64,000 nt of DNA, taken from the NCBI GenBank assembly GCA_044229075.1, contig JBGATS010000003.1, positions 12,372-76,371 on the forward strand, read 5' to 3'. How positions within the stretch are numbered: the stretch's first letter is position 1; every line of letters starts with the position of its first letter. The position numbers and the translations under genes are program-made. This stretch comes from Minisyncoccia bacterium (GTDB taxonomy: Bacteria; Patescibacteriota; Minisyncoccia; Phycocordibacterales; UBA1006). Below the pieces are notes generated by a model that made no database searches, was not told where the DNA came from, and was given only the letters and a program-made list of their open reading frames with translations. This document shows positions 29,529 through 62,192 of this stretch, one piece after another.

Positions 29529-31040
29529 TTAGCTTATTAGAACACCATTATCAAGTTTCATTTCCCCTTCATCGCAACCTACGATCTCGTTTGCGCGATT
29601 ACGTGAAGATTGGTACCACCATCCTGTTGGTGCTTCCAACCCCCATGGGTCCATAATCTCTGACCGTTCTTTTAGTTGGAACGCTTTTACTGCACGCTCT
29701 GTTGCACGGGTATATATCCCTGATACTAATAGGTGTGCGTTCATTTCCTTGTTGAGAAATTCTTGAATTTTTTTCACCTCAGAAATAGGGTTAAGTTTTC
29801 CGTATTTTACATAATGAGTAAAATGAGGACATGCTAGATCTACAGCATTATTTGTGTCGATTTTTGGAGGAGTGACTGGTATTGGATTTGTTGATAAGAA
29901 CCCAGTTGAGCCTCCTGTAGTTACATTAAAATCATTGTCGATAATAGTCACGTTAATTTTTTGTTCGATTTCATGGTAAAAACCATCACTTGACTCAGTA
30001 GTTATGGTAAGTATTCCATTATGTTCACCTTCTACAAGAGTATCATCAATTGCAGAAACAGTGATTAAATATGGTTGATTCCAGTCGTTACAAACATCTA
30101 TTTCTCCACTTTCAGATTTCGTTGCTTCTGCTTTTTTTATACCAAGGATAGATGTTGCTCGTGCTGATTTTTCTTCTGAAATGGAAGCTTCTTCTGCACT
30201 CTTCACCTCTTTCACTCCTCCACAACCAGCTTTTCCGCAACCTCCTCCTGTTTCAGTAGTAGGTTTAAAACATAATTGTTTTGGTCCTACATCTAACTGT
30301 CCATCTGGATCGATTGTTACATATACTTTATCAGTAGGATTTTCTGGAAGAGATATTCCAAAAGTATCAGTTTCACCAGACTCACTTACTTGATGAGTTG
30401 ACGAACTTATTACTAATGACCGTTTATCATTATCAATAATTGGTACTGCAAATTTTTGAGAACTGAATGTATACAAACTCTCATTTGATATAACTGTAGG
30501 AATAATTACTGTAGTATGAGCTCCTTCTATGTCATTATCATCAATTGCAGAAACCGGAATAATAAATGGATTATCCCAAGTATGGCATGTCGATGGATCA
30601 GGGAAAGTAGCCTGAGCGGAAACAGTTTTTACAAAATTAAATGCTGATTCAGCCTTTTTCTCGAGAGCAGGAGCTTCTAGAGCACTTTCGGAAGACTCTT
30701 TTACTTCTGGGATAAATGCTGCTTCATCAATTTTTACACTTGATTCTCCGGTAATCACTTTTTCTGTTACTTGTTTTGTTGTTTCTATCATCTCTCCACT
30801 ACTCTCCATAAATTCACCTTTAACAGCACCCTCTTTTGGATCAGTAGCTTCTGCTGGGTTGATAAAACAAACTGAAGACACTCCCAAGGTTGCCTGTGCA
30901 TCTGGAGTCAATTGTAATACCACCATAGGAACAGCTTCTGTAGATGTTCCTAATGCTTGACTTAATCGAATAGACACAGAGCCGACTGTACCTGATTCTG
31001 ATGCTTCTTGATTAATCGAAGTTATAATGTGGGGGGTCAA
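29529..31040 (-). CDS. secreted/cell-surface protein with two Calx-beta-like domains and a C-terminal peptidoglycan-binding-like domain (body of a gene whose signal/TM segment is in ORF 31012-31218)
   Basis: Repeats ...VSAIDDNDIEGAHTTVII... and ...VSAIDDTLVEGEHNGILTI...IIDND (Calx-beta-like). C-terminus CPHFTHYVKYG...VKKIQEFLN...GIYTRATERAVKAFQ...PWGLEAPTGWWY...ANEIVGC is shared with three neighbouring genes. TTG start directly after a G6 run. Confidence 0.6.
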   Translation of the reverse strand: MTPHIITSINQEASESGTVGSVSIRLSQALGTSTEAVPMVVLQLTPDAQATLGVSSVCFINPAEATDPKEGAVKGEFMESSGEMIETTKQVTEKVITGESSVKIDEAAFIPEVKESSESALEAPALEKKAESAFNFVKTVSAQATFPDPSTCHTWDNPFIIPVSAIDDNDIEGAHTTVIIPTVISNESLYTFSSQKFAVPIIDNDKRSLVISSSTHQVSESGETDTFGISLPENPTDKVYVTIDPDGQLDVGPKQLCFKPTTETGGGCGKAGCGGVKEVKSAEEASISEEKSARATSILGIKKAEATKSESGEIDVCNDWNQPYLITVSAIDDTLVEGEHNGILTITTESSDGFYHEIEQKINVTIIDNDFNVTTGGSTGFLSTNPIPVTPPKIDTNNAVDLACPHFTHYVKYGKLNPISEVKKIQEFLNKEMNAHLLVSGIYTRATERAVKAFQLKERSEIMDPWGLEAPTGWWYQSSRNRANEIVGCDEGEMKLDNGVLIS

Positions 31041-31218
31041 CTTCCTCTTTTCCTTTCCCTAAAATTGCATTTGGACTAAAGAAAATAGAGTAAAGCATTA
31101 TAAACAATAAACAAGCAGCAATAAATAATACGGGTGCATGTTTATGTAGTTGGATTGATTCACTGCCATGTTCACTATTTTTCATATATAGATAAAAATA
31201 TTTATAAACTAATAACAT
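31012..31218 (-). CDS. N-terminal signal/TM fragment (68 aa), probably the true 5-prime end of the 29529-31040 gene separated by a frameshift at a C6 (G6 on plus) homopolymer
   Basis: MKNSEHGSESIQLHKHAPVLFIAACLLFIMLYSIFFSPNAILGKG... (TM helix). It overlaps the next ORF by 29 nt. Removing one C from cccccc (31031-31036) gives an in-frame fusion ...EEVDPHIITSINQ. Confidence 0.5.
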   Translation of the reverse strand: MLLVYKYFYLYMKNSEHGSESIQLHKHAPVLFIAACLLFIMLYSIFFSPNAILGKGKEEVDPPHYNFD

Positions 31219-31302
31219 TCATAGTATACACTACAATAATAATTATTTGCAAGAAAAAAGAAATTATGATATCCTTCAAAGGTTGCTTTCGCAATATTTT
31301 AT

Positions 31303-31373
31303 AGCGGGATAGAGTAATGGTATCTCGTCAGGCTCATAACCTGAAGACCCCGGTTCGAATCCGGGTCCCGCAA
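31303..31373 (+). tRNA. initiator-like tRNA-fMet (anticodon CAT) with unpaired 1:72 (A1 opposite A72) and A11:U24
   Basis: A-GCGGGA-TA-GAGT-AATGGTA-TCTC-G-TCAGG-CTCATAA-CCTGA-AGAC-CCCGG-TTCGAAT-CCGGG-TCCCGC-A-A. Unpaired 1:72 and A11:U24 are bacterial initiator hallmarks. Anticodon stem base AGG:CCU. Only 71 nt with a 4-nt variable loop, and no CCA. Confidence 0.6.
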
Positions 31374-31387
31374 CATTAATGAAAAAT

Positions 31388-31414
31388 CCTCAATATAGAG
31401 CACTGAAGTATTTA
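31388..31414 (+). other. recurrent intergenic hairpin motif, copy 4 (AATAT-AGAGCACTGAA-GTATT)
   Basis: Same motif as 28881-28905 with a C-to-U change that keeps pairing as a G-U wobble. Lies between the initiator tRNA and a terminator. Confidence 0.4.
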
Positions 31415-31423
31415 TTTACAGAA

Positions 31424-31450
31424 TAAAAAACATCATACTGATGTTTTTTT
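31424..31450. terminator. bidirectional rho-independent terminator
   Basis: aaaaaacatca-tact-gatgttttttt. Confidence 0.6.
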
Positions 31451-31455
31451 GTAGT

Positions 31456-31977
31456 TTATTGAGCTTGTATCCCGTTTGTTTCTTGTGGTGATAATGAGGT
31501 ATTTCCAGGGGTAGATTTTGTTTGATCAAATGTTACCGGGCCAACATTTACAATCATTTTTCGTTCTGGACTGTAGATAATTGCCTTCCCCAATTGTGGG
31601 TATACTAATAATTTATCACCCTTTTGTGCGCCAGCAAAAAATGCTTGTTGATTGGTGAGTAGTACAGGATCTTGGATATCAAAAATTGCAGGGACATCAG
31701 ATTCTGGGAGCACCATAATCTTTTTTACTTCTTTTACTAATCGAACAGTTTCTGCTTGTACTCGTTTTTCTGATGCTTTTTTTGAAAGATTAAATTTGTA
31801 ATAGAATCCTGCCAAAACTACAATGATAATTCCAAGAATCGCAAGAATTGTTTTTTGTTTTGTAGAAAAAGAATTTTTTTTCTTACCCACAGACTGTTGA
31901 TTATCGAAACTGTTTTCATGAACAGCTGTGTTAGTAATTTCTTCGTTCATAAATTCGCTCATTTTTTTTGTAGTCAT
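31456..31977 (-). CDS. membrane-anchored hypothetical protein (173 aa)
   Basis: TM helix ILAILGIIIVVLAGFYY followed by a soluble domain. Confidence 0.4.
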   Translation of the reverse strand: MTTKKMSEFMNEEITNTAVHENSFDNQQSVGKKKNSFSTKQKTILAILGIIIVVLAGFYYKFNLSKKASEKRVQAETVRLVKEVKKIMVLPESDVPAIFDIQDPVLLTNQQAFFAGAQKGDKLLVYPQLGKAIIYSPERKMIVNVGPVTFDQTKSTPGNTSLSPQETNGIQAQ

Positions 31978-31999
31978 AAATAAATATAATAGACATTAA

Positions 32000-33367
32000 T
32001 TAATAATTTGGACACCCGACAATTTCATTTGCTTTACGTTTTGAATACGTTGCCCAGATACCTGTTACATTTGGTAATCCTGCAGCAGTAATGATGTCGG
32101 TATAATATTTTTGATGATACCGTTTTACAGTTCTCATAACAGCGGGTGTGTAGACAATCCCTTTTTTTAATTTTGCATCAGGGAACTCAGTATTTAAGAA
32201 ATTAATAATCCTGGAAACATCCCCGCCAATACTTCCTAATCGGTGATGTTTTGTAAATACCGGACATCGATTTGTAGTGGTTGGTTTTTCAATAACTACT
32301 TTTTCATAATAGGAAGGACACATGAAACTGTTAATTTTTGCAACGGTTGTTTTGTAGACATAACCTGTTGGACTACTTGTCCCCCATGGACCCAAAACAT
32401 CATTCATATACTTTGCCTGGAACCGTTTTACTGCGAGGTAATCAACTTTTTTATACCTTCCATCAATAACGAGTTTTTCTCCTTCGTGTTCCTTAAGGAA
32501 TTTTTGTAATTTACGAACCTCGACAGGATCATTTTTTGCACCTAATTTTATATATTTTAAAAGGTAGGGTCCACACTGATTATTGTTGATTATTGGTTGT
32601 GTTGGATTAACAGGTGTTGTAGTAGGTGCTACACAGAAACCGTTACTGTAGACAAGTGGGGCTATGCAACTACCTCCTCCGCCCCCAGAAGATCCACCAC
32701 CTCCACCACCTGAACTATTTACCTCATCAGTATCAAGAGAACTCGAACATCCAGGGTCCGACGGATAATCAATGAGTGCGTCTCCATCATTATCAATTCC
32801 GTCAGAACATGCATATATTGTACGGTACGGGATAGCTCGCCAATCTGTTTTTACACAAGTACCTGTTCCTGTACAATCAAATTTCATCCAACCACCATGC
32901 GCGCCGGATACCCATGCCCAACCTTGAAAATTACTACCAGCACCATTATCCACAAGTGTAACTCCGACAATTGCCCCTCCGGGTGCCGTAGTTGGTGAAA
33001 AGTTAATCCAGCTCCCTACATTTGCATATGCCTTTCCTGAAAGAGTGCCTGTTGTGGGATTTACTATCACACCAGCACCAGTTGGCGACATAGTAATCCA
33101 TCCAACTTCATTTCCCCATGCGTGCCCAGTAATTCCTGTATCAGTAATAGTCACCGCTGTGGCCCCTGGTGTATTACTATTTAATGTTGGTTTAAAGTTA
33201 ACCAAACCAAATACAGAACATGTGGTGTCCTTGCAAATTTTTGTTGTGGTATATCCTAGATCAATAGTACCAACTGTTACCGAAGCAACTGCTACACTAC
33301 TTAACGAGAATATACCCAGTGTAATACCGAAAAATAAATATATACTTTGAAGAAAAGATATTTTCAT
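32000..33367 (-). CDS. secreted cell-surface protein with two tandem C-terminal PG-binding-like domains and a Cys/Asp-rich Ca-binding-like segment
   Basis: Signal peptide MKISFLQSIYLFFGITLGIFSLSSVAVA. CSDGIDNDGDALIDYPSDPGC plus a Gly-rich linker. Two copies of the C..(F/Y)T.(Y/H)..G.....V..(I/L)Q.FL...PWG..(A/S)PTG.(W/Y)Y...ANEIVGC module. Confidence 0.55.
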   Translation of the reverse strand: MKISFLQSIYLFFGITLGIFSLSSVAVASVTVGTIDLGYTTTKICKDTTCSVFGLVNFKPTLNSNTPGATAVTITDTGITGHAWGNEVGWITMSPTGAGVIVNPTTGTLSGKAYANVGSWINFSPTTAPGGAIVGVTLVDNGAGSNFQGWAWVSGAHGGWMKFDCTGTGTCVKTDWRAIPYRTIYACSDGIDNDGDALIDYPSDPGCSSSLDTDEVNSSGGGGGGSSGGGGGSCIAPLVYSNGFCVAPTTTPVNPTQPIINNNQCGPYLLKYIKLGAKNDPVEVRKLQKFLKEHEGEKLVIDGRYKKVDYLAVKRFQAKYMNDVLGPWGTSSPTGYVYKTTVAKINSFMCPSYYEKVVIEKPTTTNRCPVFTKHHRLGSIGGDVSRIINFLNTEFPDAKLKKGIVYTPAVMRTVKRYHQKYYTDIITAAGLPNVTGIWATYSKRKANEIVGCPNY

Positions 33368-33434
33368 TACTTATAAGTATATCATAAAAACATTATTAGA
33401 AAATACTATTCTTGATAGAGGGAAAACAAGGCCG

Positions 33435-33463
33435 TAAAAAAAGCCACTGTCAAGTGGTTTTTT
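33435..33463. terminator. rho-independent terminator
   Basis: aaaaaaagccact-gtca-agtggtttttt. Confidence 0.6.
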
Positions 33464-33470
33464 ATAGTTT

Positions 33471-35765
33471 TTATTTACCGCAACTATTATTAATCAATGA
33501 TCGAGTAATAGGCCCTACGAGTCCATCTTGATCGGTACCAAGGAATTTTTGCATTCTCTTGATAGCCCCATCAGTAATGGGACCGAGAATACCATCAACT
33601 GGTCCGCTATTGAAACCAAGTCTGTTCATGTGTGTTTGGAGTATTTTTACTTCACGAAGAATTTCTTTATTCGCAATAGTTACTCGAGAATAATTATTAA
33701 TACGACCATTACGAGCACCCATTTTCATATTTTGGGTAATTAATAAATCACTTGAACACTGTCCTGGATTTCCAAGGATTGGTGTTGTACTTGTAATTAC
33801 AGGAGAAGAAGTTGTAGTATTTGGTCTCGGTGTACAGAATGTAGTAATTGTTGTAGAACAATACTGAACTCCACCTCCAGATGAAACAGAGGGTGCTATA
33901 TAATTAAAATTACCTGTTACTGACGGCGAAGCCCCTCCTGCATTTGTTTGAATTATTGTAATAACTGCAGGGTTTGCAGAAAGAGTAATCGGTGTTGTAT
34001 AGGTTCCACCTATAGCACAAACTACTGTAGTTGGGTTTGGCGTAAGAGCACTTGAAGTAAGGGTTACAGTTGCACCTGCTTCACATGTACCACTTGCGGT
34101 GCCAGCTGTTGCTGACGTTGGGGTAATTGTCACTGTTGGCACACTTGGGATAAATGTTACTGTTCGTGTAATAATATTTGAATTCGTATCTTGTCGATTT
34201 CCTATACTATCAATAACTCCTGTTGGCGAAATGCCAAATGGAATCGATACTGTAAGTGGTCCACTTGCTATTGGTGTAATATCAACAGTATACGGACCTG
34301 ACCCTGACCCAACAATATTTGAAGCGGTTCCATTCGTCACAGAAATATCTGAAAGAGTAAGTTCTGAAATTGATTCATTTGGAGTAATAGTAACGGTAAA
34401 TAATCCTGTCACTGTTGCTGGCGCTGTTGTTGAGAGTACAATTATTGGTGCTGTTGCGTCGATTGTAAACGACGAAAGCGTAAGGGTATTTGAAATATTA
34501 CCCGCAGCGTCTGTTACTGTGATAGTACATGCTACATAGGTACCGTTTGCAAGTGCATTTAATGTTATTGTATTGCTTCCCGCCGTTGCTGTTGTGGTAG
34601 CACTTGAGCAAGAACCTCCATAGGTAATAGTCCCTGCCTCGTTAGTAGTAAATGTATAGTTTGGGGTAGTATCGTTGGTAGGAGTTGTGACTGCAGTTAC
34701 TTCTGAGATGGTGGGTGTGGTAGTATCGTAGGTAACAGTATTATCAGTGCTTGTTGCTACTAGATTCGGATTTCCATTTACGTCGGTCACCATATTCGCT
34801 GCAAGTGATACGATAATCGTTCCATTTCCTGTAGTAGTAACAGGAATAGTCCACGTAATATTGTCAGTTGTTGTAGGTGTTCCTACGGTTCCAGCACCTG
34901 TTCCTGATAACACAATATCACTTGCAGTAAGTGTTGCAGGATTAATTGCTTCAGAAAAAATAGCTGTAAAGCTTAGCGCGCTGTTATTAGTTGGATCTGC
35001 TTGCCCACCTGATTGGTTGATAGTTACTGTTGGCTGTGTTACATCAAAAGTACATGCACTTGCCCCATAAGGAGTAGTATTATTTACCCAGTTACTACTG
35101 TTTGCAAGCGACCCAAGAAGTGTACTTGAAAAAAATCCCGCTTCTATACAACTATACTGAAAATTATCAGGAGAACCCAGAGATATTGCCGTTGTTCCAA
35201 GTGAAAGCGGTGATGGGACCCACGAATTGTTCGATGATGGTGGAACACTTGAAGTCCATGTCGTAGCACCTGCCCATCCAACACCATAAATAAACAAAGG
35301 TACCGCGGCTGTCCCTTGAAAAACAAGAAGGTTGTCTCCACTTGTTGCAAAATCCATAGTATTGGAACCGCTTGCAACACCCAAGGCTCCTGTTGCACCA
35401 TCAATCGAAAACATGTCCCATGTTCCTGGAGCGCCTGCAATTAAAGAGTCATCAAAATGGACAATGGTTCCTGCAGTAATTGCGGACGGTGCCGTAAAAC
35501 GAACAACTCCCTCGGAAAGTCCTGACCGCCAAAAAGGAACCCCCAGTGAACCATCCCAACCTTTATCAGTAAAATAAATTACTGTACCTGCATCAATATC
35601 AACCCGAGATACGAAATCAAATCCATTTGTTGATGGGTAAGTACCTGTGGCATTTGCAGTGATAATAACAAGATCACCTGGTAATAATACTGTTGCAGCA
35701 AAACTAATACGCGGAAGTATTACCAACGCAAGAACTGCAAAAAATGTAATTAATATTTTTTTCAT
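33471..35765 (-). CDS. secreted T/S-rich Ig-like-repeat surface protein with canonical C-terminal peptidoglycan-binding domain (PG_binding_1-like)
   Basis: Signal peptide MKKILITFFAVLALVILPRISFA. Long T/S/V-rich beta-repeat region. C-terminus VKILQTHMNRLGFNSGPVDGILGPITDGAIKRMQKFLGTDQDGLVGPITRSLI matches PG_binding_1. Confidence 0.6.
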   Translation of the reverse strand: MKKILITFFAVLALVILPRISFAATVLLPGDLVIITANATGTYPSTNGFDFVSRVDIDAGTVIYFTDKGWDGSLGVPFWRSGLSEGVVRFTAPSAITAGTIVHFDDSLIAGAPGTWDMFSIDGATGALGVASGSNTMDFATSGDNLLVFQGTAAVPLFIYGVGWAGATTWTSSVPPSSNNSWVPSPLSLGTTAISLGSPDNFQYSCIEAGFFSSTLLGSLANSSNWVNNTTPYGASACTFDVTQPTVTINQSGGQADPTNNSALSFTAIFSEAINPATLTASDIVLSGTGAGTVGTPTTTDNITWTIPVTTTGNGTIIVSLAANMVTDVNGNPNLVATSTDNTVTYDTTTPTISEVTAVTTPTNDTTPNYTFTTNEAGTITYGGSCSSATTTATAGSNTITLNALANGTYVACTITVTDAAGNISNTLTLSSFTIDATAPIIVLSTTAPATVTGLFTVTITPNESISELTLSDISVTNGTASNIVGSGSGPYTVDITPIASGPLTVSIPFGISPTGVIDSIGNRQDTNSNIITRTVTFIPSVPTVTITPTSATAGTASGTCEAGATVTLTSSALTPNPTTVVCAIGGTYTTPITLSANPAVITIIQTNAGGASPSVTGNFNYIAPSVSSGGGVQYCSTTITTFCTPRPNTTTSSPVITSTTPILGNPGQCSSDLLITQNMKMGARNGRINNYSRVTIANKEILREVKILQTHMNRLGFNSGPVDGILGPITDGAIKRMQKFLGTDQDGLVGPITRSLINNSCGK

Positions 35766-35824
35766 AGTATATAAATTATATCATAATAATAAAAAACACC
35801 TAACAGTGTTTTTTATTCATCTAT

Positions 35825-38467
35825 TTAATTTTTTACTACATTTCCATTATCAAGCTTCGTCTCACCTTCACTACATCCAGCATGGTAGTTTGCAAGATTT
35901 CGCGTAGATTGATACCAGTGTCCTGTTGGTTTTGAAAGTTTCCAAGGAATTAATACCTTATCAGCATATTTATTTTGATATTGCTCTACTGCCTTCTTTG
36001 TTTGTGGACCAAAAACTCCTGAAATTGGTAATTTTATTCCTAAGTGTTCATTGAGAAATTCTTGCATCTTTTTAACCTCAAAAATTCCATTTTTTCCATC
36101 ACGATCACCATACCGCATATATTGAGTAAAATATGGACATGATTTTTGGTCTTTTATTAATTCTGCAGCATTAGAATTTAACGTGGATGAATTTACTATA
36201 TTCCAACCCAGTACTGCTATCATTCCTCCACCAGAACCTGATGTTATGGTTGGAAGAGAGTAATTAATAGTGAGTGCATTGGAAGCTGTTGCATTTGTAT
36301 TACTTGCTCCATCAGTCACACTCCCTGCAAGAATTTGTACCGTTATTGCTCCTGGGGCTATAGGTGTAATGGTAACCGCATAGTTACCAGACCCATCAGG
36401 TCCGACGAGGTTTGATGCCGTGCCGTTGGTTACCATTAAATCAGAAAGCGTAAGTCCGGTAATTGATTCACTTGGGGTAATGGTTACGGTGAATGGAGCT
36501 GATACTGAGGCTGATGAAGTTGCAAGAGTAATAGTCGGCGCAGTTGTATCAGATGGTACTGATGCAATAACCAACACACTTGTCCCGTCTCCTGTTTGAT
36601 TTTCTGTCGTACCAATATTACCAGCGGCGTCATGCGGAATGATTTCAATATTGGTAAGCGCTTGGCCATATATCATTCCTATGGTAAGCGATGCGGCTAG
36701 TACCGTACATGTATACGGATCAGTAACGACTGACGGAGCGGTACATATTGCTGCAACACCGCCAACAGTAATTGTCGATGTGGCAAGGTCAAGAATCTCA
36801 TCAGAAATAAATGAGAGGGTTACACTATCAGAACCTGAAGTTGCTTCAAAGCTTGGACTTGTCCCTGAAGGTCCTGAGATACTCACACCACTGATTACTG
36901 GGGCCGTTGTATCGCCGGCATCTGCAATAATAGTAGTAAGATTTGCAGGAAGTGAGAGACTTGAGTAATTTGTATCTGGTGAAGTAATTGCAATAAATTC
37001 TACGACACCTGTATGAGTACCTTCTGGTACCCCATCAACAACTGGAGTCACTGTAATTTCTTGTCCGAGATTCCAAGTATTACATGGCTCAAACGGTGAA
37101 ATACCAGGTGTTATTGACATGCTTGCAGGTACAAAACAAACTCCAGATACTGGATTACCATCTTTAGTTAACTCCAACTGTCCATCAGTATTCGTAAATG
37201 CTATTTCTACAATATCTGTTGGTTCATTTGATAAACCCATTTGAAATGTTGTAGCGACTGGTCCGGTTTCATTTATATTTGCAAGGTTTGGTGTTGGTGA
37301 AACCCATACCCCAGCAGTTTGTGGAAGTGTAGCCGTGAGGAAGATACTCAGCGTATTTCCATGATTTACCGCTGCAGCATCAGGAAGACTATCTCCATCA
37401 AAATCATTTACAGCAATTCCAAGAGGACTAAAATTCACCGTATAAGGAACTGGTGCATCAAATGTTAGATCACCATTACCCAGGGCAACCTGCACTCCTC
37501 CTGTTGATGTAGCCGAAGCATCTGACCATAAAACATCTAAATTTCCATCACCATCAAAATCCACTATCTTTGAATAATATGCTGAGCCTGGATATGTTTG
37601 ATGAATAATTGATCCATCCAAAGAAACAATACTCATTCCATCATTAGGAGAAGTGACTACTAATTCATAAATACCATCATTGTTAAAATCAGCAGTATTT
37701 ACACCGTACGGATTAGTTGATGCAAAGCTATAATCAAAATCAAAATTTCCAGATCCATCGTTTCGATATGCTTGAATTTGACTTTGGTTTTCATCTGCAA
37801 TAATGATATCTTTCCATCCATCACCTGTGTAATCAAATGCAGTCATTGCTTTACCTCCATGACCAGAACCGGTACCTCCTGCTGTCGCATAAGAAAATAC
37901 TCCTGACCCATTGTTCGTATACACCTCGAACGCGCTTACATTTTCTGTGCCGATAATAACATCGTTATCTCCGTCATTATCCATATCAGCAAGAGTTAAA
38001 TCTCCTTGACGAGTTCCATCTGTGTTACTTAATGCAACTACATCAAAAGCACCTGTAAACCGTACTCCTGCTCCTGTATTTTTATATATTTGGAGTTGTC
38101 TCAAATTACTATTCCCCACAACAATATCAACATCTCCATCGCTATCGATATCACCAACAGCAAGCCCCCATTCATAGGAAGCACCGTCGCCAAGAATTAA
38201 CGGTGCCTGAAAGGTTCCGTTTCCGTTTCCATATAAAATTCCGATTCCTGCCATACTTTTTCCATCGGTTACTACAAGATCGTTTTTTCCATCTGCATTA
38301 AAATCTGCAGATTCTACGAGGTGCATATCGCCGCCTAGAATAGTTGGAGTTTGTGGATTAAATGGATATGCGGACACAGTATGGTATCCAAACAGAGCAA
38401 TAACAATTACTCCTGCACATAGCCCTGCCAGCTGATAATATAATTTTTTTATATTTGGATTACCCAT
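35825..38467 (-). CDS. secreted FG-GAP/VCBS-repeat (beta-propeller) surface protein with Ig-like domains and C-terminal PG-binding-like domain
   Basis: Repeated FNADGKNDLVVTDG, VGDIDSDGDVDIVVGNSN, DMDNDGDNDVIIGTEN, DFDGDGNLDVLWSD (FG-GAP Ca-binding repeats). C-terminus CPYFTQYMRYG...VKKMQEFLNEHLG...PQTKKAVEQYQ...PWKLSKPTGHWY...AGC. Confidence 0.6.
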   Translation of the reverse strand: MGNPNIKKLYYQLAGLCAGVIVIALFGYHTVSAYPFNPQTPTILGGDMHLVESADFNADGKNDLVVTDGKSMAGIGILYGNGNGTFQAPLILGDGASYEWGLAVGDIDSDGDVDIVVGNSNLRQLQIYKNTGAGVRFTGAFDVVALSNTDGTRQGDLTLADMDNDGDNDVIIGTENVSAFEVYTNNGSGVFSYATAGGTGSGHGGKAMTAFDYTGDGWKDIIIADENQSQIQAYRNDGSGNFDFDYSFASTNPYGVNTADFNNDGIYELVVTSPNDGMSIVSLDGSIIHQTYPGSAYYSKIVDFDGDGNLDVLWSDASATSTGGVQVALGNGDLTFDAPVPYTVNFSPLGIAVNDFDGDSLPDAAAVNHGNTLSIFLTATLPQTAGVWVSPTPNLANINETGPVATTFQMGLSNEPTDIVEIAFTNTDGQLELTKDGNPVSGVCFVPASMSITPGISPFEPCNTWNLGQEITVTPVVDGVPEGTHTGVVEFIAITSPDTNYSSLSLPANLTTIIADAGDTTAPVISGVSISGPSGTSPSFEATSGSDSVTLSFISDEILDLATSTITVGGVAAICTAPSVVTDPYTCTVLAASLTIGMIYGQALTNIEIIPHDAAGNIGTTENQTGDGTSVLVIASVPSDTTAPTITLATSSASVSAPFTVTITPSESITGLTLSDLMVTNGTASNLVGPDGSGNYAVTITPIAPGAITVQILAGSVTDGASNTNATASNALTINYSLPTITSGSGGGMIAVLGWNIVNSSTLNSNAAELIKDQKSCPYFTQYMRYGDRDGKNGIFEVKKMQEFLNEHLGIKLPISGVFGPQTKKAVEQYQNKYADKVLIPWKLSKPTGHWYQSTRNLANYHAGCSEGETKLDNGNVVKN

Positions 38468-38526
38468 AGACTTGAAAAGTGTTATACTTATTAATATATT
38501 ATTATAATAACATAATACTACTTATT

Positions 38527-38721
38527 ATGCACAAACTTTTCAAACAAATACCAACACAACTCATCCTTGCAATTATTCCTATGGTTGCACTGTTTATCGG
38601 CGTAGGCATTGGCTATACCATAAATAAACTTGAGGTGAAAAAACTAAAAACTGAACTTGCTCAAAAACAAAAAGTTATTTTTGATCTAGAAAAAAATTGT
38701 CATGGTCATGAAGATTATTAA
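38527..38721 (+). CDS. small membrane protein (64 aa), hypothetical
   Basis: ATG 38527 (MHKLFKQIPTQLILAIIPMVALFIGVGIGY...), one TM helix plus a coiled-coil tail. The only plus-strand ORF in this block. Confidence 0.25.
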   Translation: MHKLFKQIPTQLILAIIPMVALFIGVGIGYTINKLEVKKLKTELAQKQKVIFDLEKNCHGHEDY

Positions 38722-38726
38722 ATAGA

Positions 38727-38759
38727 TAAAAAAATCACTCATATATGAGTGATTTTTTT
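38727..38759. terminator. bidirectional rho-independent terminator after the giant gene
   Basis: aaaaaatcactcatat-atgagtgattttttt. Confidence 0.65.
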
Positions 38760-38762
38760 ATC

Positions 38763-49389: not shown

Positions 49390-49423
49390 ATAAATAGAGT
49401 ATATCAGAAATATATGAAATACA

Positions 49424-49460
49424 AAAAGCGGGAAAATGCTTCGCATTTTCCCGCTTTTTC
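49424..49460. terminator. rho-independent terminator hairpin
   Basis: aaaaagcgggaaaatgc-ttcg-cattttcccgcttttt. Confidence 0.6.
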
Positions 49461-49475
49461 ATTACTCTACATCCA

Positions 49476-49865
49476 CTATCTCACCAATTTTAAAACCCAA
49501 TACGCAATCATCGCAATCAATCCTCCACTGACGGTTCCCCATGCCATATCTACCAGTGCGAATTTCAACGGCCATCCGGTAATAATCGCCAAGTTCGTCA
49601 TGTCATACACACCGTAAACAATTAATCCTAAAAATGCTCCGTACAGTGCTGCCGTTCCTAAGCTTGTAATTTTAGGAAATACAAATAATATAGTACCCAG
49701 CGCGAGTAATACATACACAACAACCGCAGGCCACAATTTAAAATCTCCTGTCATCCATGGCGACAGCATTTTAGTATTAAAGGGTTTCATAATAATCCCG
49801 AGCCAGATGAAATCGAGGATAATAACAGAAATAAATGATGTGATGAAAATGATGAGGGTGTTCAT
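49476..49865 (-). CDS. integral membrane protein (DUF2177-like), 129 aa
   Basis: Four hydrophobic helices. Start taken at MNTLIIF (cat at 49863-49865). Confidence 0.4.
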   Translation of the reverse strand: MNTLIIFITSFISVIILDFIWLGIIMKPFNTKMLSPWMTGDFKLWPAVVVYVLLALGTILFVFPKITSLGTAALYGAFLGLIVYGVYDMTNLAIITGWPLKFALVDMAWGTVSGGLIAMIAYWVLKLVR

Positions 49866-49972
49866 GGTGTTAGTATAGCATAATTTAGTTTTTTGTTTTT
49901 TGAAAAAACTTGACAATATTTTTGATTTGTGTATAATTTAGGTAAATATTGTAAACAAAAAAATAATTTAAA

Positions 49973-53755: not shown

Positions 53756-54313
53756 TTATATCACCATGAGTTTCTTAAATATTTCAAAAGTTGCCCGAAT
53801 ATCAGCAAGTGCGGTATGCGCTTTCTCGTTCTTGATCCCAAGACGTTCACATAATTCCCGCAGAGTAAAACTCGTCATCGTAGCGTCTTTCCGGAATCGC
53901 ATATACGCCAAGGAGATCGTATCGAGCTTTGCGTAATAAAAAGGATCTTTAATCCCTTTTTGACCAAACGCATACGATAAAAATGAATAGTCAAAACTGA
54001 TGTTTTGCCCTACCAAAATACATCCATCACATTTTTGGGAAAGTGTTTTCAATGCTTCCTCGAGTGTATGGGCGAACATCCATGCAGACTCATCGTATCT
54101 ATTAACCCGTAATGCCTCTGACTCTGCGGTTTCGATATGTTCTGGTTGTACCTTGAATTCGAACTCGTCAGTAGCAACCCATTCTCCGGCATCATTCTGT
54201 TTTGCGATGAGACATCCAATTTCAATAATTTCATGTTTATACGGATTGAGTCCTGTGGTTTCAATATCAACAAATGCGAGTTTTTTACCTTTCATAGTAA
54301 TTAAGTATACCAA
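53756..54313 (-). CDS. DEDDh 3-prime-5-prime exonuclease (DnaQ/PolIII epsilon-like)
   Basis: LAFVDIETTGLNP (Exo I), ...FDYSFL... (Exo II), AHTALADIRATFEIF (Exo III with His, DEDDh). Confidence 0.8.
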   Translation of the reverse strand: MVYLITMKGKKLAFVDIETTGLNPYKHEIIEIGCLIAKQNDAGEWVATDEFEFKVQPEHIETAESEALRVNRYDESAWMFAHTLEEALKTLSQKCDGCILVGQNISFDYSFLSYAFGQKGIKDPFYYAKLDTISLAYMRFRKDATMTSFTLRELCERLGIKNEKAHTALADIRATFEIFKKLMVI

Positions 54314-54344: not shown

Positions 54345-54695
54345 TTAATTTTTATTCTGTTTTCCGGTATTTTCATAGCTATTTACAATAAATTCTGATG
54401 CATTACTTACATTTCCTGAAATATTAAAAAGTCCATCCGTTGGATTTGGATAGACATTAAAATCTTCAAATATTGAGCTATTGTTTTCTATTGCTGTTGG
54501 TGTATTAATTACATTAACCTGACTTGTTCTATTGCCTACTTTGTCATAAAAATACGTTTCACTATTTCCATTTGGAAATGTGGCTGTTTTGATACGATTT
54601 TTGGAGTCGTAGGTGTATTTAATTGATTGTGCTTTAATTATTATAGTAAAAAACAAACTAAATAAAAGTACAATTAACAATTTTAAATTATTCAT
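54345..54695 (-). CDS. signal-peptide YD/RHS-repeat fragment with truncated T9SS C-terminal sorting-domain-like tail (orphan fragment)
   Basis: MNNLKLLIVLLFSLFFTIIIKAQS (signal). YTYDSKNRIKTATFPNGNSETYFYDKVGNRT (YD repeats). VYPNPTDGLFNISG resembles the start of a Por/T9SS CTD, cut short by the stop. Very AT-rich. Confidence 0.4.
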   Translation of the reverse strand: MNNLKLLIVLLFSLFFTIIIKAQSIKYTYDSKNRIKTATFPNGNSETYFYDKVGNRTSQVNVINTPTAIENNSSIFEDFNVYPNPTDGLFNISGNVSNASEFIVNSYENTGKQNKN

Positions 54696-54698
54696 AAT

Positions 54699-55136
54699 TT
54701 AATTAAGATTTAAATAATTTTTAGCTTCTAAGGTTGTTGTAAATAATAATTCGGGATAAATATTCAAAAATTCATTGATGCTATTTTCTAGAACAAACTC
54801 AATTAATAATTCATAATTAGTCTTTATATAATTTATTAATAGCTTTTCATTAAGTTCTAAATCTAACGGTAAAAAATCATACTCGTTATTATTTATTTTA
54901 AATGTGAACCTAGTTCTTATATCTCCATCTGAGTCCTTAGGGTATTCTAATGTAGGATGCAAAGCTTTAAAAACATAGCCCAAATTAAAATAATATGCAC
55001 TAGAATATGCTGATCTTTGTATTCCTACTACACATATTATTTCACTATTTTGTTTATAATAAAAATTACCTTTTTTTATAAAGCCTAATAATTTAAAGTA
55101 ATTTAATATTTGTTTTTTTAATTCTTTTATGTCCAT
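54699..55136 (-). CDS. putative immunity protein for the adjacent RHS toxin (145 aa)
   Basis: Immediately downstream (2-nt gap) of the toxin module, same strand, AT-rich. The assignment is from context only. Confidence 0.35.
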   Translation of the reverse strand: MDIKELKKQILNYFKLLGFIKKGNFYYKQNSEIICVVGIQRSAYSSAYYFNLGYVFKALHPTLEYPKDSDGDIRTRFTFKINNNEYDFLPLDLELNEKLLINYIKTNYELLIEFVLENSINEFLNIYPELLFTTTLEAKNYLNLN

Positions 55137-55137
55137 A

Positions 55138-55899
55138 TTAGTATAAATCTAAAACTGTTTTCCAACCTTTTCCATATAATTTCTCAACTTCTATTAAATA
55201 CATTTGTAGTTGTTTTTTACCTTCTTTGATTTGTCTTGGATTATTTGGTTTTAACTCATAAATTATCTTATTTTCAAAATCTATAAAATCAATTCTTAAT
55301 CCGCTAGGCAATCTAAATTCTTTACATCTTATACACTTAATCCCTTTTTTTAAAACATCATTAGCTTTATATAATCTATGCATTTCTTGACCAATTTTAA
55401 AACTTGATTTAGTGTAGTTAACCCCTTTTATTGAGGCTCTACCCACAGTTCCACCACCTGCCACACCTGGCAATGCTGTAGTTACAACATCTAATGCTAA
55501 AAATACAAAATTACCCAAAGTTGGATTGTTTCTATATTCATTTAAATCATAAGCAAATGATGCAACATCAGCAGCTGTTTCCACATATTCCCCATTCGGA
55601 TCAACATTCATTATCGGATTATTATCCGCATACGGAAATAAATTGGTACTCCATACAGGATCTTCTGAATAGAATCTCCCATAGTAGGGATTATAGCATC
55701 TATTCCGCATATAGTAAAGGTTTTGGAGGTCGTACTGAACGCCATATTTTCCTACATATTTAAAGGGTTGTTCAAATTGTTGTGTTTGGTTGGTTACATC
55801 ACCAAATGTGCCGTAGCGGTAGGTATGCGTAACGGTACGGTTTCTATCCAATATCATAGTGGTAGAACCTCTGGGGTTATAATTAAAAAAAACACCCAT
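55138..55899 (-). CDS. orphan RHS-repeat-associated core C-terminal fragment with polymorphic toxin domain (probable PD-(D/E)xK-type nuclease toxin)
   Basis: YYMRNRCYNPYYGRFYSEDPVWSTNLFPYADNNPIMNVDPNGEY matches the RHS core terminus (RYYDP..GRF.S.DP...NLY.Y..NNP....DP.G). The following about 150 aa include RIDFIDFENKIIYELKP (D...E.K nuclease-like). Confidence 0.6.
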   Translation of the reverse strand: MGVFFNYNPRGSTTMILDRNRTVTHTYRYGTFGDVTNQTQQFEQPFKYVGKYGVQYDLQNLYYMRNRCYNPYYGRFYSEDPVWSTNLFPYADNNPIMNVDPNGEYVETAADVASFAYDLNEYRNNPTLGNFVFLALDVVTTALPGVAGGGTVGRASIKGVNYTKSSFKIGQEMHRLYKANDVLKKGIKCIRCKEFRLPSGLRIDFIDFENKIIYELKPNNPRQIKEGKKQLQMYLIEVEKLYGKGWKTVLDLY

Positions 55900-55910: not shown

Positions 55911-56996
55911 TTATTTCAAATATTTCTCCTTGTTTTTTAGATGTTCTTGATACATTTCTGCGTAATGAATAGTTCCCTGATCATCATGAAGATAATACCA
56001 ATACGGTGAATCAACAGGGTTGAGTGCGGCACTGATCATCATTTTTCCTGGATTACCGATAGGACCTGCGGGGAGCCCTGTTCGTGTGTAGGTGTTATAG
56101 GCAGAATCTTTTTGTAAATCGTTCATAGTGAGTTCGCTACTAGTTTTTCCTAATGTATATTTAAACGTTGCATCCACCTGCAGCGGCAATCCTTTTTCCA
56201 TTCGTTTCCATAAAATTCCGGCAACTACCCTTGCCTCTTCTGCATTATTTGCCTCCCGTTCCAATATTGATGCCATGGTTATAATCTCTGCTGCAGTGCG
56301 CACTTTCCCACCATAGGAAACAATGGTTGTTGCATCTTTTGGGTTTTCTGAGGTTTGAAACATATCTTGAAAACTTCTCATTACCATATTCCATTGATCC
56401 TGTAATTTGGTAATAATCTGGTCAACTGATTGAGTTCGGAAAAAATAATACGTATCAGGGAAAAGGTATCCTTCCTGGGAAACAGTTTCCTGGAGAAAAA
56501 CATCTCGACGAAATTCAGGTATTTTTTGGGAGAGGATGTCTGCCATCTCGTACCGAGTAATTCCCTCGGGGAATGTTATCTTGATACGACTATTTCCGTA
56601 TGACCCACGAACAAATCGTCTGGCAATAGAAAAAACATGTTCTGGTTTTTCCAGTAGATAATCCCCGGTAACAATTGGTTTTCCTTTCCACCGGGAAGAC
56701 ATAATTACACGGAACCATAATGATGATCGGATGAGTTGGTTATTCTGTGCAACTGACGCAAGTTCCCGAATCGTCATTCCAGAATATACGGTAATCATGG
56801 TGCCTGGTTTGAAATGTTTTGGTGGTAATGAAATAATAAAAATCCATACAATAATACCTACCAGTAATCCTATACAAAACAACATTACATACCAAAAAAC
56901 TCCTCGCTTTTTCTGTGCGTGAGTTTCTGTGGGAGAGACCGGAATATCCGCGGCTACTTCTGCCAAGAGAGATTGATAGTCAGGATGTATATCCAT
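55911..56996 (-). CDS. mltG: endolytic murein transglycosylase MltG (YceG family)
   Basis: N-terminal TM, then KITFPEGITRYEMADILSQ..., then the YceG-like domain to the C-terminus. Confidence 0.8.
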   Translation of the reverse strand: MDIHPDYQSLLAEVAADIPVSPTETHAQKKRGVFWYVMLFCIGLLVGIIVWIFIISLPPKHFKPGTMITVYSGMTIRELASVAQNNQLIRSSLWFRVIMSSRWKGKPIVTGDYLLEKPEHVFSIARRFVRGSYGNSRIKITFPEGITRYEMADILSQKIPEFRRDVFLQETVSQEGYLFPDTYYFFRTQSVDQIITKLQDQWNMVMRSFQDMFQTSENPKDATTIVSYGGKVRTAAEIITMASILEREANNAEEARVVAGILWKRMEKGLPLQVDATFKYTLGKTSSELTMNDLQKDSAYNTYTRTGLPAGPIGNPGKMMISAALNPVDSPYWYYLHDDQGTIHYAEMYQEHLKNKEKYLK

Positions 56997-59379: not shown

Positions 59380-59596
59380 AGTTTTATTATAAGTAAAAAA
59401 TTAATAAACGGATAAAGAGTACAATAAAACAGAAAGGGGCTCTCAAGACAATGATGCGTATTCCTTTTGTTATGTATTCATAGTATCACAAGGCAAAATA
59501 AAAGTCAAATAGTTACCTGTTTTTATTTATCAACGTCTTTTGCTTTTTGTAAAGGACATAGTGATTAATATAATGTCCTTTACCAAGAATAAAAAA

Positions 59597-59624
59597 CCCC
59601 GATGCAGAGCATTGAGGTATTGGG
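59597..59624 (+). other. recurrent intergenic hairpin motif, copy 3 (CCGATGC-AGAGCATTGAG-GTATTGG)
   Basis: A 7-bp stem including two G-U wobble pairs around the same AGAGCAYYGAR loop. Lies in the leader upstream of the sigma-r4/HARE-HTH gene. Confidence 0.4.
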
Positions 59625-59645
59625 AATTAAGTCTCAATTATTTGT

Positions 59646-61538
59646 TCATCTCACTACTCTCCCATCACTTCCAATCTTTGATGTATCGTTCGGAATTCTG
59701 GTGGTCATGAATCGTTTTTCTCCGGCGATTTCTGTCTTGGTAACCGTATCAAATCCAGAAAACGTAATGTTACTCGTCAGGTTTGGTACGGTACCAATTT
59801 GTGATTTTGATGGAGTAATTCCCACCGTGAACGCAACCGTTTTTGCATCAGCCAGGGCAGGTACATCGCCTGCTTTCCAGGTTACCTGGCGGGTAACCGT
59901 GTTATAGGTCAGTGACGGTTTCAGGTCTGCAGGTGCGACAATTCCTTTCCAGACAATTCCTGTCGGTAGTGTCGCAGAAACAATCGCGTTACTAACTGGG
60001 TTCGGCTGATTCGATAATTGCCAGACAATAGTATAGGTGGTTTCCTTTCCAGATTCTATAGGAATCGGCCCGGTATTTTTCAATAATCCAGAATGGTAAA
60101 GTGTCTTTGGGATGAGGTCAAAATTCGTCCCGATGGCAATTTTCCCAGTTGTTGCATTAACTAATTCACGAGGTTCACCACCTGATAACACTCCTGATAC
60201 GCTGACCGCAACGTCTACTGTGGCACTGGCTTGTAATCCTTTTTTTGGATCAATACCAACAGTGAGTAATCCTTTTTCACCCGGATCAAGTGTTTTCAAT
60301 TCTTCAAGTTCGTTCCCTGTCCAGGTCACCGTATTATCCGCGGAATTAAAATATCCTAACGAAGCAGATACTGTATCTGGATCATACGCATCACCTGATA
60401 ACGCAAGCTTGATCTGTGCATTGGTAATTGGTGTATCGGTAGTATTTTCATATTCAATCTGAATATCACTGGAACGATTTTGTGCAATTGCAATACCGTC
60501 TGTATATGGTTTCCCATTAATGCCCAGTCTGGTGGTGAGAAACGGTTGACTGGTGGTAATTGCATGTGCAGTACTGGTGTATACCGTCGTAATCAATCGG
60601 TCGTTTCCAGGATCTTTTGATCCAGCAACTGCGGTAATCGTTTGCCCCGAGTTGAGCAATGTTGCACACTGCATGGTGAGTTGCACAACCACAGGATTTC
60701 CTGGTAGGAGGTTTCCTATATACCAATAATTTGAATCAGTTGTTGGTGTTGGATCTGATCGTACCAATCGACAATCGTCCGGGTAACTAACTGACAATAA
60801 TGTATCTTGTACTGACTGAGTACTGTTTCCCGTTAATGTTATAATCACGGGAAACTCTTGCCCCGAGACAACAGTTTCATCTGCACGAATAGTGAGTGTT
60901 GCTGTACCAGATCGCAGTGTTAATCGAGTTTCCCCTGTGTTTTCAAAAATTGCCTGCGCATCCCCCAATCGATATTCCACCTGCGCAGAGAATAATTTCT
61001 CGACACCCTGTTCACCGAACACTTGCACCCGGATCGTTTCGGTAAACAATTCACCGGGACCCAGCGAGCCTATCTGTTTCACAATTTCTTTCTTTGCGCC
61101 AGGATCTTTTGCAGTCCCCAGTGGGTAGGTGATGACTAATTTTGCCAGTTCCATAGGAACGGTATTTCTGTTGGTAACCGTAACGTTTACCGATACTTCT
61201 TCACCACTATCCGCAAACGGGCTGGTACTGACTGCAACATCAACCAGGTCTCCTGTCAGTCTGGCTTTCCCAGTATACAATGAATACCCAAAGACCCCTG
61301 CAGCGATAACAAGAAAAACACAGGATGCAATGAACATTCTCTTGAACCAAGATTTTTGTCGGGCACGACGTAGTGCCAATTGCGTATCTCTATCTTGATC
61401 GGGTTCTGGCATTTCCCAGTGGTCAGGGATCGGGGGTACCTTCTCTCTATGGAGAATTCCTCGATGATCATCAGTAACCACGTTCCCTGTCGCCAGATCC
61501 GTATCTAATTTTTTCAAAAAGCTTTCATCGGAATTCAT
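59646..61538 (-). CDS. membrane-anchored secreted beta-rich protein (about 630 aa), hypothetical
   Basis: TM MFIASCVFLVIAAGVFGYSLY followed by repeated beta-sandwich-like segments. Start set at MNSDES (cat at 61536-61538) to avoid overlap with the lipoprotein gene. Confidence 0.45.
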   Translation of the reverse strand: MNSDESFLKKLDTDLATGNVVTDDHRGILHREKVPPIPDHWEMPEPDQDRDTQLALRRARQKSWFKRMFIASCVFLVIAAGVFGYSLYTGKARLTGDLVDVAVSTSPFADSGEEVSVNVTVTNRNTVPMELAKLVITYPLGTAKDPGAKKEIVKQIGSLGPGELFTETIRVQVFGEQGVEKLFSAQVEYRLGDAQAIFENTGETRLTLRSGTATLTIRADETVVSGQEFPVIITLTGNSTQSVQDTLLSVSYPDDCRLVRSDPTPTTDSNYWYIGNLLPGNPVVVQLTMQCATLLNSGQTITAVAGSKDPGNDRLITTVYTSTAHAITTSQPFLTTRLGINGKPYTDGIAIAQNRSSDIQIEYENTTDTPITNAQIKLALSGDAYDPDTVSASLGYFNSADNTVTWTGNELEELKTLDPGEKGLLTVGIDPKKGLQASATVDVAVSVSGVLSGGEPRELVNATTGKIAIGTNFDLIPKTLYHSGLLKNTGPIPIESGKETTYTIVWQLSNQPNPVSNAIVSATLPTGIVWKGIVAPADLKPSLTYNTVTRQVTWKAGDVPALADAKTVAFTVGITPSKSQIGTVPNLTSNITFSGFDTVTKTEIAGEKRFMTTRIPNDTSKIGSDGRVVR

Positions 61539-61632
61539 ATCATTGATTATAGCATAAACATGTGGGAAATAAAAAATCCGATATCTTGCTATATAAATTT
61601 GCAAAATATCGGATATAAGAGTAAAAGAAAAA

Positions 61633-62103
61633 TTATGGGTGCCAAACATATTCTGATTTGAATTCTTCAGAGAATTTATATATTCTTGGAAAATTATTTT
61701 CAGAATATGAAATTTCTTTTAAAATAAACCCTGAATTATATTCATTGTAAACTGTTTCGATAGCTTCAATATAGATCTTTTCTGTTTCATTTTTCTTTAA
61801 GAAAATTTCACCATCAATCTTATTAAGATTAGAATTACCAATCCAAATTGAATTGAAACTGCAGTTTATCGAATCGATTTTCAAACTTTTAAAATCAACA
61901 ATAATATCTGTACCTATTGCTTTTATTTCAAAAGTCATCGTAGCTTTTGAGATAAGGTTTGGAACTCGATCAAACACTTGTTCAGTATTGATAAGTCTTG
62001 CTTCTAAGACCCCAGTTTCTTTTACAATTGTAATTTCTGATTTTTTACAAGAACTTAATAATACTATTAATCCTAATAATACTAGCGCGATGTTTTTTTT
62101 CAT
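61633..62103 (-). CDS. putative lipoprotein (156 aa)
   Basis: MKKNIALVLLGLIVLLSSC, a lipobox-like LSSC. Very AT-rich. Confidence 0.45.
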   Translation of the reverse strand: MKKNIALVLLGLIVLLSSCKKSEITIVKETGVLEARLINTEQVFDRVPNLISKATMTFEIKAIGTDIIVDFKSLKIDSINCSFNSIWIGNSNLNKIDGEIFLKKNETEKIYIEAIETVYNEYNSGFILKEISYSENNFPRIYKFSEEFKSEYVWHP

Positions 62104-62163
62104 TATTTTTTTATTTTATTAAATATAATATATCATATTTGTATATAAAAGTCAAGTATCCAC

Positions 62164-62192
62164 AAAAAACCACCCTTTTAGGTGATTTTTTA
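62164..62192. terminator. rho-independent terminator immediately downstream of rplB
   Basis: aaaaaaccaccc-tttta-ggtgattttttatt. Confidence 0.5.

Follow-up and report, generated by a model that had tools for sequence, protein, structure and literature searches.

Is the 32.6 kb of non-ribosomal DNA that follows rplB on contig JBGATS010000003.1 of a Minisyncoccia bacterium an accessory island lodged in an intact str-S10-spc-alpha cluster of ribosomal protein genes, or has the cluster itself come apart in this lineage? The window, by which we mean the whole 64-kb stretch analyzed, carries on its minus strand, from high to low coordinates, rplD-rplW-rplB, a terminator, the 32.6 kb of non-ribosomal genes, tRNA genes, rpsL-rpsG-fusA, two hypothetical genes encoding proteins of 388 and 456 amino acids (aa; h388 and h456), and infA through rplQ (Table 1). 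Gene content was read from six Pfam scans of all substantial open reading frames (ORFs), extended to every ORF of at least 80 aa in the 29.5-62.2 kb interval, and from tRNA and Rfam scans. Every gene and coordinate named in an initial annotation of the window was recovered with Pfam; that annotation had gone on to propose either a genuine rearrangement with an island inserted into the superoperon or an assembly join. We consider it likely that the window instead shows a lineage-specific, fragmented str-S10-spc-alpha layout characteristic of a Paceibacteria clade (Patescibacteria, or candidate phyla radiation, CPR), not an island in an intact cluster.

The exact look-up of the window rplB returned no record, and its context was therefore read from homologues. 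Among the matches listed, the nearest rplB sequences in GTDB species representatives belong to Paceibacterota, Kaiserbacteria, and Minisyncoccia metagenome-assembled genomes (MAGs) at 58-66% identity, and a search of 5.8 billion proteins found homologues at 84-94% identity. Six loci were compared on this side: L081 (a 46-kb NCBI MAG contig), L082 and L085 (Logan), L083 and L084 (ENA), and L086 (a 160-kb JGI contig), with rplB 77-94% identical to that of the window (77% in L086). The order tuf-rpsJ-rplC-rplD-rplW-rplB is present in L081-L084 and L086, L085 being a short contig with only the end of rplW, rplB, and the genes that follow; in L081, L083, and L084, tuf has an opposite-strand S30AE (hibernation-factor) gene ahead of it. 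After rplB, the first large gene in every one of the six loci encodes a protein of ∼630 aa and is never rpsS; L084, L085, and L086 have one small gene in between. The window protein (ORF listed at 667 aa; the likely start at 61538 gives 630 aa) and its six counterparts are orthologues, 40-63% identical by tblastn. A gene similar in size to that of the window's 156-aa lipoprotein, which has no Pfam or PHROG match, occupies the same position in L084 and L085. No relative with rplB at least 77% identical has rpsS after rplB, and an uninterrupted (empty) site was not seen among them. The initial annotation had allowed that the same order in relatives would point to an ancestral arrangement, and it is this same post-rplB break that the relatives display. 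It had also placed a terminator directly after rplB, correctly: a 14-pair, A/U-extended hairpin followed by a U-run, missed by a simple scan, folds at −19.5 kcal/mol (z = −5.5). In gene order, tuf-rpsJ-rplC-rplD-rplW-rplB is a stand-alone unit, and it ends at this terminator. In L086, tuf, rpsJ, rplC, and rplD are called as fragments (6315-9816), probably owing to frameshifts in a long-read assembly and not to pseudogenes.

The second junction, at which h388 follows fusA, is real as well. Homologues of fusA at 85-94% identity were numerous in the protein search, and a metagenome scan with h456 returned a single locus, L093, which reads fusA, a 381-aa h388 orthologue (34% identity), a 443-aa h456 orthologue (31% identity), infA, and rpsM. 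The loci compared on this side are five ENA assemblies (L093 and L096-L099; fusA 87-88% and rpsL 97% identical) and L094, which has the closest fusA (overall fusA range 87-94%). An h388 orthologue follows fusA in all six of these other assemblies. The order continues through h456 to infA in L093, L096, and L098; it is the same in L097 until the contig ends inside the h456 orthologue, and the contigs of L094 and L099 end inside the h388 orthologue, in L094 within its N-terminus, right after fusA. L096 gives S74 protein-rpsL-rpsG-fusA-h381-h443-infA-rpsM-rpsK-rpsD-rpoA-rplQ-rplM-rpsI and matches window 18436-28522 exactly. The alpha operon order in the window, rpsM-rpsK-rpsD-rpoA-rplQ, is canonical, and the block, listed earlier as far as rplQ, runs on into rplM-rpsI. 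The h388/h456 pair is conserved in position and fast-evolving in sequence, with identities of 34% and 31% vs 87% for the adjacent fusA (L096 4807-7291). The junction between rpsG and fusA has also been invaded in relatives: L094 has a RhuM fragment, an opposite-strand DMP19 gene, and a duplicated 23-codon rpsG 3′ end at 7984-9163, and L089 a 319-aa gene at 8947-9906.

The claim that tuf is missing after fusA holds: in the window, a terminator and then h388 come after fusA, and in relatives tuf sits upstream of rpsJ without fusA before it, so tuf is not seen after fusA because it stays with the S10 unit. Downstream, infA is preceded by h456, and secY, adk, and map are not in the window. The transcription signals agree with separate units. 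The str genes have their own promoter-like site and intrinsic terminator, h388-h456 ends at a terminator-like hairpin, and the infA unit has its own promoter-like site. Since the post-rplB and fusA-h388 breakpoints both recur in independent assemblies, comparison of gene order argues that both are ancestral to the clade and not assembly joins. The rearrangement proposed earlier is thus genuine (L081-L086; L093, L094, L096-L099), and its attribution to an assembly join at these two junctions is not sustained.

Where, then, are the genes that should follow rplB? A tblastn search with 26 Bacillus reference proteins finds none of the rpsS...map genes anywhere in the 64 kb, in agreement with the reported absence of the rpsS...secY block. 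In L087, a distance of 5.5 kb separates rplB from rpsS and the genes that follow downstream. A second sub-clade (L089, L090, L091, and L095) has fusA followed by one or more surface genes and dnaE on the opposite strand; adk-map lies just upstream of rpsL in L089 and L090, and L089 additionally has the preceding genes, giving rpsN...secY-adk-map-rpsL. Given the essentiality of these genes and their location in relatives, rpsS...map presumably lies elsewhere in the window organism.

Compared with the canonical cluster of Escherichia coli and Bacillus, which most CPR loci share (e.g., L002, L003, L009, and L079), the window keeps the gene order inside each surviving block, namely rplD-rplW-rplB, rpsL-rpsG-fusA, and infA-rpmJ-rpsM-rpsK-rpsD-rpoA-rplQ. 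It differs in three broken adjacencies (fusA|tuf, rplB|rpsS, and map|infA), in the placement of its str genes beside the alpha operon and not upstream of S10, and in the absence of rpsS...map from the 64 kb. The canonical rpsL-rpsG-fusA-tuf-rpsJ-rplC-rplD-rplW-rplB-rpsS...secY-adk-map is kept in 16 other CPR loci. In Paceibacteria-type loci, the spacer between rplB and rpsS spans 186-4061 nt, being at least 540 nt in 9 of 10 loci and 0.5-1.1 kb in 8, vs 58 non-CPR loci in which the median is 24 nt and the longest spacer 180 nt. The rplB|rpsS boundary was thus already loosened across the class, as these unusually wide spacers indicate. The 4-kb spacer of L040 contains a 1007-aa secreted protein gene and a transposase-like gene. 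In L087 and L088 (rplB 75% identical), rplB is still linked to rpsS-rplV... across 5.5 kb that encodes a 636-aa S74/LVIVD protein, a protein of 174 aa (L087) or 336 aa (L088), and a 561-aa CarboxypepD_reg protein, and this relative also has an S74 gene and a helix-turn-helix gene between rplW and rplB. The Paceibacteria spacers contain unrelated short ORFs; a conserved inserted gene or RNA was considered and rejected, as the spacers share no homology with one another or with the window. The rplE-rpsN and rpsJ-rplC spacers are also often 0.5-3 kb in L002, L005-L011, and L040, vs ∼24 nt in other bacteria.

These intermediates suggest a breakup by insertion and then separation. In a first stage, the rplB-rpsS spacer would have widened to 0.2-4 kb across Paceibacteria; in a second, a multigene insert would have accumulated, of which the 5.5 kb of surface-protein genes in the 75% relative may be an example; in a third, the two halves would have separated fully, as in the closer relatives and the window. 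On the other side, one sub-clade keeps map beside rpsL and the other keeps h456 beside infA, from which the ancestor probably had rpsL-rpsG-fusA-h388-h456 between map and infA; the sub-clade of the window would have lost the left link (map|rpsL) and the other the right link (h456|infA).

The conservation of this cluster and its occasional breakup are well documented, with 163 alteration events reconstructed (Brandis 2021, Genome Biol Evol, PMC8046335), and the route of insertion followed by separation has been published (PMC8046335; Brandis et al. 2019, PMC6735719). Our series resembles that route in its gradation from spacers of 0.2-1.1 kb through inserts of 4-5.5 kb (L040, L087) to complete separation (L081-L086 and the window). 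It is unlike it in that two of the breaks fall inside single operons of E. coli (S10 and str) and not between operons, that the inserted genes are surface- or fibre-like with no transposons or segmental duplications seen, and that the lineage is CPR, outside the coverage of that study. With regard to a transposon or a duplication at the breakpoints, no transposon was seen, paralogous S74 genes flank the breakpoints in several relatives, and the point at which L087 and L088 diverge could equally be an assembly effect. In the literature searched, neither this CPR rearrangement nor the presence of S74 genes in CPR is reported. We regard the layout as a new case of a kind of event already known, one that appears to be undescribed in this CPR clade.

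Several points weigh against the reading preferred here. The map-str′-infA ancestor is a parsimony argument only, with which the single-protein neighbor-joining tree of fusA is only partly congruent. In that tree the two arrangements downstream of fusA are not cleanly resolved, P0139/L095 (dnaE) grouping near P0140 (h388), so that either more than one event is needed or the tree is unreliable. Both the presence and the place of rpsS...map in the window organism are deduced from relatives and from the essentiality of these genes. Beyond the 630-aa gene, relatives with rplB 77-90% identical run into glyS, followed by genes for an AI-2E transporter and a lactamase_B protein, and the window, which has no glyS, runs into a sigma-like gene. 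Finally, upstream of rpsL every relative read is different, and tRNA genes are there in none: L089 has map-h152, L090 map-h107 and a 1113-aa S74 gene, L094 gyrA and a 781-aa S74 gene, and L097 and L098 a gene for an S74 protein of ∼515 aa, with a Cupin gene in L097 only. The regions after the 630-aa gene and upstream of rpsL are evidently hot spots. The window-specific joint is accordingly at 59.4-59.6 kb and not at 62.19 kb, because relatives share rplB and the 630-aa gene and only then turn to glyS. In sum, the closest relatives (L081-L086; L093, L094, L096-L099) have breakpoints identical to those of the window, with the 630-aa gene following rplB and the h388-h456 pair linking fusA to infA; they are unlike it in running from the 630-aa gene through glyS to the lactamase_B gene, and in having a single Peptidase_S74 gene before rpsL, where the window has tRNA genes and a 19-kb surface cluster.

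The last two differences raise the question of whether the ribosomal junctions are real and the 109-kb contig nonetheless merges two loci, from one genome or from related genomes, which would make the 32.6-kb spacing artificial. The candidate points are 59.4-59.6 kb, where relatives read rplB-630aa-glyS in place of rplB-630aa-sigma-like gene; the tRNA cluster at 29.0-29.5 kb, tRNA genes being conserved sequences at which metagenome assemblers can mis-join; and the S74 domain of the giant 3054-aa gene at ∼39.3-39.5 kb. The last of these is suggested by L087 and L088, which have identical rplB. Their sequences agree at 99-100% downstream of a point (∼8478) that falls within a Peptidase_S74 gene and are unrelated upstream of it, where one has tuf...rplW and the other ftsW-bacA-PAP2-secDF; a 155-bp indel flanked by 55-bp direct repeats (13548/13703) is a further difference. 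Either S74 paralogues have recombined here or a repeated domain was mis-assembled, and since the divergence lies inside an S74 gene, these genes are recombination or mis-assembly sites in the clade. Within the window, however, no candidate joint interrupts the tetranucleotide signature, GC content, GC skew, or gene strand, each joint has a normal regulatory architecture of a terminator hairpin followed by a promoter-like site, no repeat inside the window connects the joints, and relatives as a rule carry surface-protein genes immediately before rpsL. We therefore regard such a chimera as unlikely, while noting that, by comparison with relatives, an assembly join is excluded for the two ribosomal junctions only. 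Logan contigs encode the exact rplW, rpsL, and mltG proteins of the window.

The content of the 32.6 kb fits poorly with a foreign origin. Its GC content is 0.394 vs 0.388 in the left flank, and 5-kb tetranucleotide profiles correlate with the whole window at r = 0.91-0.95 across both junctions, falling to 0.63-0.88 only in the repetitive surface-protein genes at 32-45 kb; nearly all window genes are on one strand, and GC skew declines steadily, leveling off only briefly within surface-protein genes (∼33-35 and 41-47 kb). The description of the region as partly AT-rich is thus true of small genes only (lipoprotein, 0.27; h165, 0.24; h90, 0.29; toxin cassette, 0.22-0.33; ∼3 kb in total), and the compositional comparison of the region with its flanks reveals no overall deviation. 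About half of the genes are housekeeping genes, encoding Gap, MltG, a helicase-nuclease, an exonuclease, and a sigma-like protein. Between 29.5 and 62.2 kb, where intergenic gaps are below 420 nt and too short to hide one, Pfam detects no integrase, recombinase, or transposase in any ORF of 80 aa or more, and no bounding direct repeats (att sites) were found, as blastn of the window against itself links nothing between 28.5-31.5 kb and 59-62.3 kb. Peptidase_S74 is the sole phage-like domain by Pfam in the region; a phage structural, packaging, or lysis set was not found, PHROGs matching only the PG_binding domain of two surface proteins, and a prophage or phage remnant was rejected for want of structural PHROG matches. 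Viral contigs scanned with the 503-aa protein of the surface cluster and with the hairpin at 29.5 kb gave no matches.

The 32.6 kb is resident chromosome, made up of housekeeping genes, a fast-evolving surface cluster, and an orphan RHS toxin/immunity cassette that is small and AT-rich; the likely acquired pieces in it are small (the toxin cassette, the lipoprotein gene, h165, and h90). The reading first proposed, in which ∼32 kb of mobile or horizontally acquired DNA entered after rplB as an accessory island and pushed the remaining S10/spc genes elsewhere, is highly improbable. In its favor it has tRNA genes at one end, the AT-rich, acquired-looking genes just listed, and several lineage-specific surface proteins. 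Against it stand the lack of mobility or phage genes, bounding repeats, an empty rplB-rpsS site, and an overall compositional shift, the housekeeping content, and the relatives that have the post-rplB break but not these genes after rplB, so that the break predates and is independent of the present content.

With a fragmented, clade-specific layout as the preferred explanation, the character of the genes at its edges merits comment. Peptidase_S74 (fibre-like) genes lie directly beside rplB, rpsL, or fusA in most relatives read (L087, L090, L094, L095, and L096-L099). We offer as a tentative idea, which we think has perhaps a modest chance of being correct, that ribosomal operon boundaries are preferred sites for keeping and exchanging S74-type surface genes, and that recombination between the C-termini of paralogues fragmented the supercluster and keeps reshuffling it. 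If so, the most conserved gene cluster of bacteria would have broken up through a mechanism tied to the diversification of host-attachment genes in an episymbiont.

The layout also has practical consequences, chiefly for those who build CPR marker-gene phylogenies and those who curate MAGs. CPR phylogenies and checks of bin quality often use 16 syntenic ribosomal proteins on one scaffold. With the ribosomal markers of this clade distributed over at least 3-4 separate loci, extraction from a single scaffold fails or mimics contamination or incompleteness, and the post-rplB break in these genomes is not to be taken for mis-assembly. The clade further provides a graded natural series for relaxed selection on ribosomal operon concatenation in ultra-small symbionts, and it raises the question of whether turnover of surface-protein genes is a driver of that relaxation.

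Table 1. Annotated features of the 64-kb window, in order of descending coordinates
Feature	Position	Strand	Basis
rplD (L4), 3′ part; gene extends beyond window end	63479..64000	-	Pfam Ribosomal_L4; tblastn 63542-63997
rplW (L23)	63151..63474	-	Pfam Ribosomal_L23, 8e-23
rplB (L2), final gene of tuf-S10′ unit in clade	62193..63044	-	Pfam L2_N + L2_C; same unit end in L081-L086
Terminator, hairpin + U-run, overlapping rplB stop codon	62162..62193	-	RNA fold
Strong promoter-like site TTGACT-17-TATATT (with TG) of lipoprotein gene	62127..62155	-	Predicted
Lipoprotein, 156 aa (MKKNIALVLLGLIVLLSSC...), GC 0.27	61633..62103	-	
∼630-aa protein, weak DUF11/Ig-like match; conserved downstream neighbor of rplB in clade	59646..61538	-	Weak Pfam DUF11; orthologues in L081-L086
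Intergenic joint at which window departs from relatives (those run into glyS)	59380..59645	-	
Sigma70 region 4 (Sigma70_r4) + HARE-HTH protein, 346 aa	58339..59379	-	Domain matches
Hypothetical protein, 414 aa	57003..58247	-	No domain or PHROG matches
mltG (YceG family), housekeeping	55911..56996	-	Pfam YceG, 3.5e-66
Orphan RHS toxin cassette, GC 0.22-0.33	54345..55899	-	Domain matches
DEDD (DnaQ/RNase T type) 3′-5′ exonuclease	53756..54313	-	Domain matches
UvrD-type helicase fused to PD-(D/E)XK nuclease (AddA/PcrA-like), 1012 aa	50527..53565	-	Domain matches
DUF2177 membrane protein + type I GAPDH (gap)	48334..49916	-	Domain matches
Surface-protein cluster	29529..47927	-	Pfam
3054-aa Peptidase_S74 gene, sole S74 gene of window, 10 kb upstream of rpsL	38763-47927	-	
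Second tRNA-Met, inside 32.6-kb region	31303-31374	+	
tRNA-Asp	29409-29483	+	
tRNA-Met	29248-29323	+	
tRNA-Thr	28955-29030	-	
Promoter-like site of rpsL-rpsG-fusA	28685-28712	-	Predicted
rpsL-rpsG-fusA (str operon without tuf)	25432..28522	-	Pfam
Intrinsic terminator after fusA	25397-25423	-	Predicted
h388 + h456, conserved lineage-specific hypothetical pair (388, 456 aa) between fusA and infA	22805..25359	-	
Terminator-like hairpin after h456	22766-22798	-	
Promoter-like site ahead of infA	22688-22715	-	Predicted
infA (22449-22670), rpmJ (22209-22322), rpsM, rpsK, rpsD, rpoA, rplQ, rplM, rpsI	18436..22670	-	Pfam, tblastn; same order in L096

The toxin cassette consists of a 253-aa tip with Rhs_assc_core (TIGR03696, residues 29-103) and Tox-REase-9 (residues 162-253), a DUF4304 gene immediately downstream, and an RHS-repeat fragment of 116 aa that weakly matches Por_Secre_tail. 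From its family annotation, DUF4304 is a putative immunity protein. The cassette is like known orphan RHS/polymorphic-toxin cassettes in its core followed by a C-terminal toxin domain, its small immunity-type gene, and its low GC, and unlike them in that the window holds only the tip and the fragment, with no full-length RHS/YD-repeat shell. The RHS toxin module of the initial annotation is therefore present as an orphan C-terminal tip and not as a full RHS protein.

The surface cluster encodes the 3054-aa Peptidase_S74 protein, two Big_12/PG_binding proteins of 880 aa (with FG-GAP) and 764 aa, proteins of 455 and 173 aa, and the 503-aa PG_binding protein. The 3054-aa gene is repetitive at the DNA level (44290-44586 vs 45649-45945, with many further repeats of 70-80% identity in 40-47.4 kb), which accounts for its deviant tetranucleotide profile. 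At the other end of the cluster, a perfect 20-pair hairpin at 29480-29526 lies where two genes converge, overlapping tRNA-Asp at its 3′ end and abutting the 503-aa gene at its stop codon; it is likely a bidirectional terminator. The tRNA genes reported here are present, at a count of four for this end of the region and not three once the plus-strand tRNA-Met inside it is included; at the gathering threshold, Rfam finds five tRNAs only and zero ribosomal leader elements in the window.

Of the hypothetical pair, h456 has one transmembrane helix, and neither protein matches any sequence in Pfam, NCBIfam, or the PDB. A word-indexed search with h388 gave one homologue only, at 90% identity, and its AlphaFold2 model, built from a two-sequence alignment, has a predicted local distance difference test score (pLDDT) of 38.8, too poor for a fold search; a beta-beta-beta-alpha pattern in the model merely hints at an actin-like ATPase, and we make no claim to that effect.

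Outside the ribosomal units, a highly structured intergenic repeat of ∼105 bp occurs in three copies that are 92-94% identical (12474-12582, 12982-13090, and 16006-16116). The copies flank a DUF559 gene and sit upstream of dnaK. Inverted repeats, GTACTCCTCA...TGAGGAGTAC, form the termini of the element, with two hairpins, GCTCCTCT-nnn-AGAGGAGC, inside it, and in appearance the element resembles a miniature inverted-repeat transposable element (MITE) or a repetitive extragenic palindromic (REP) sequence.

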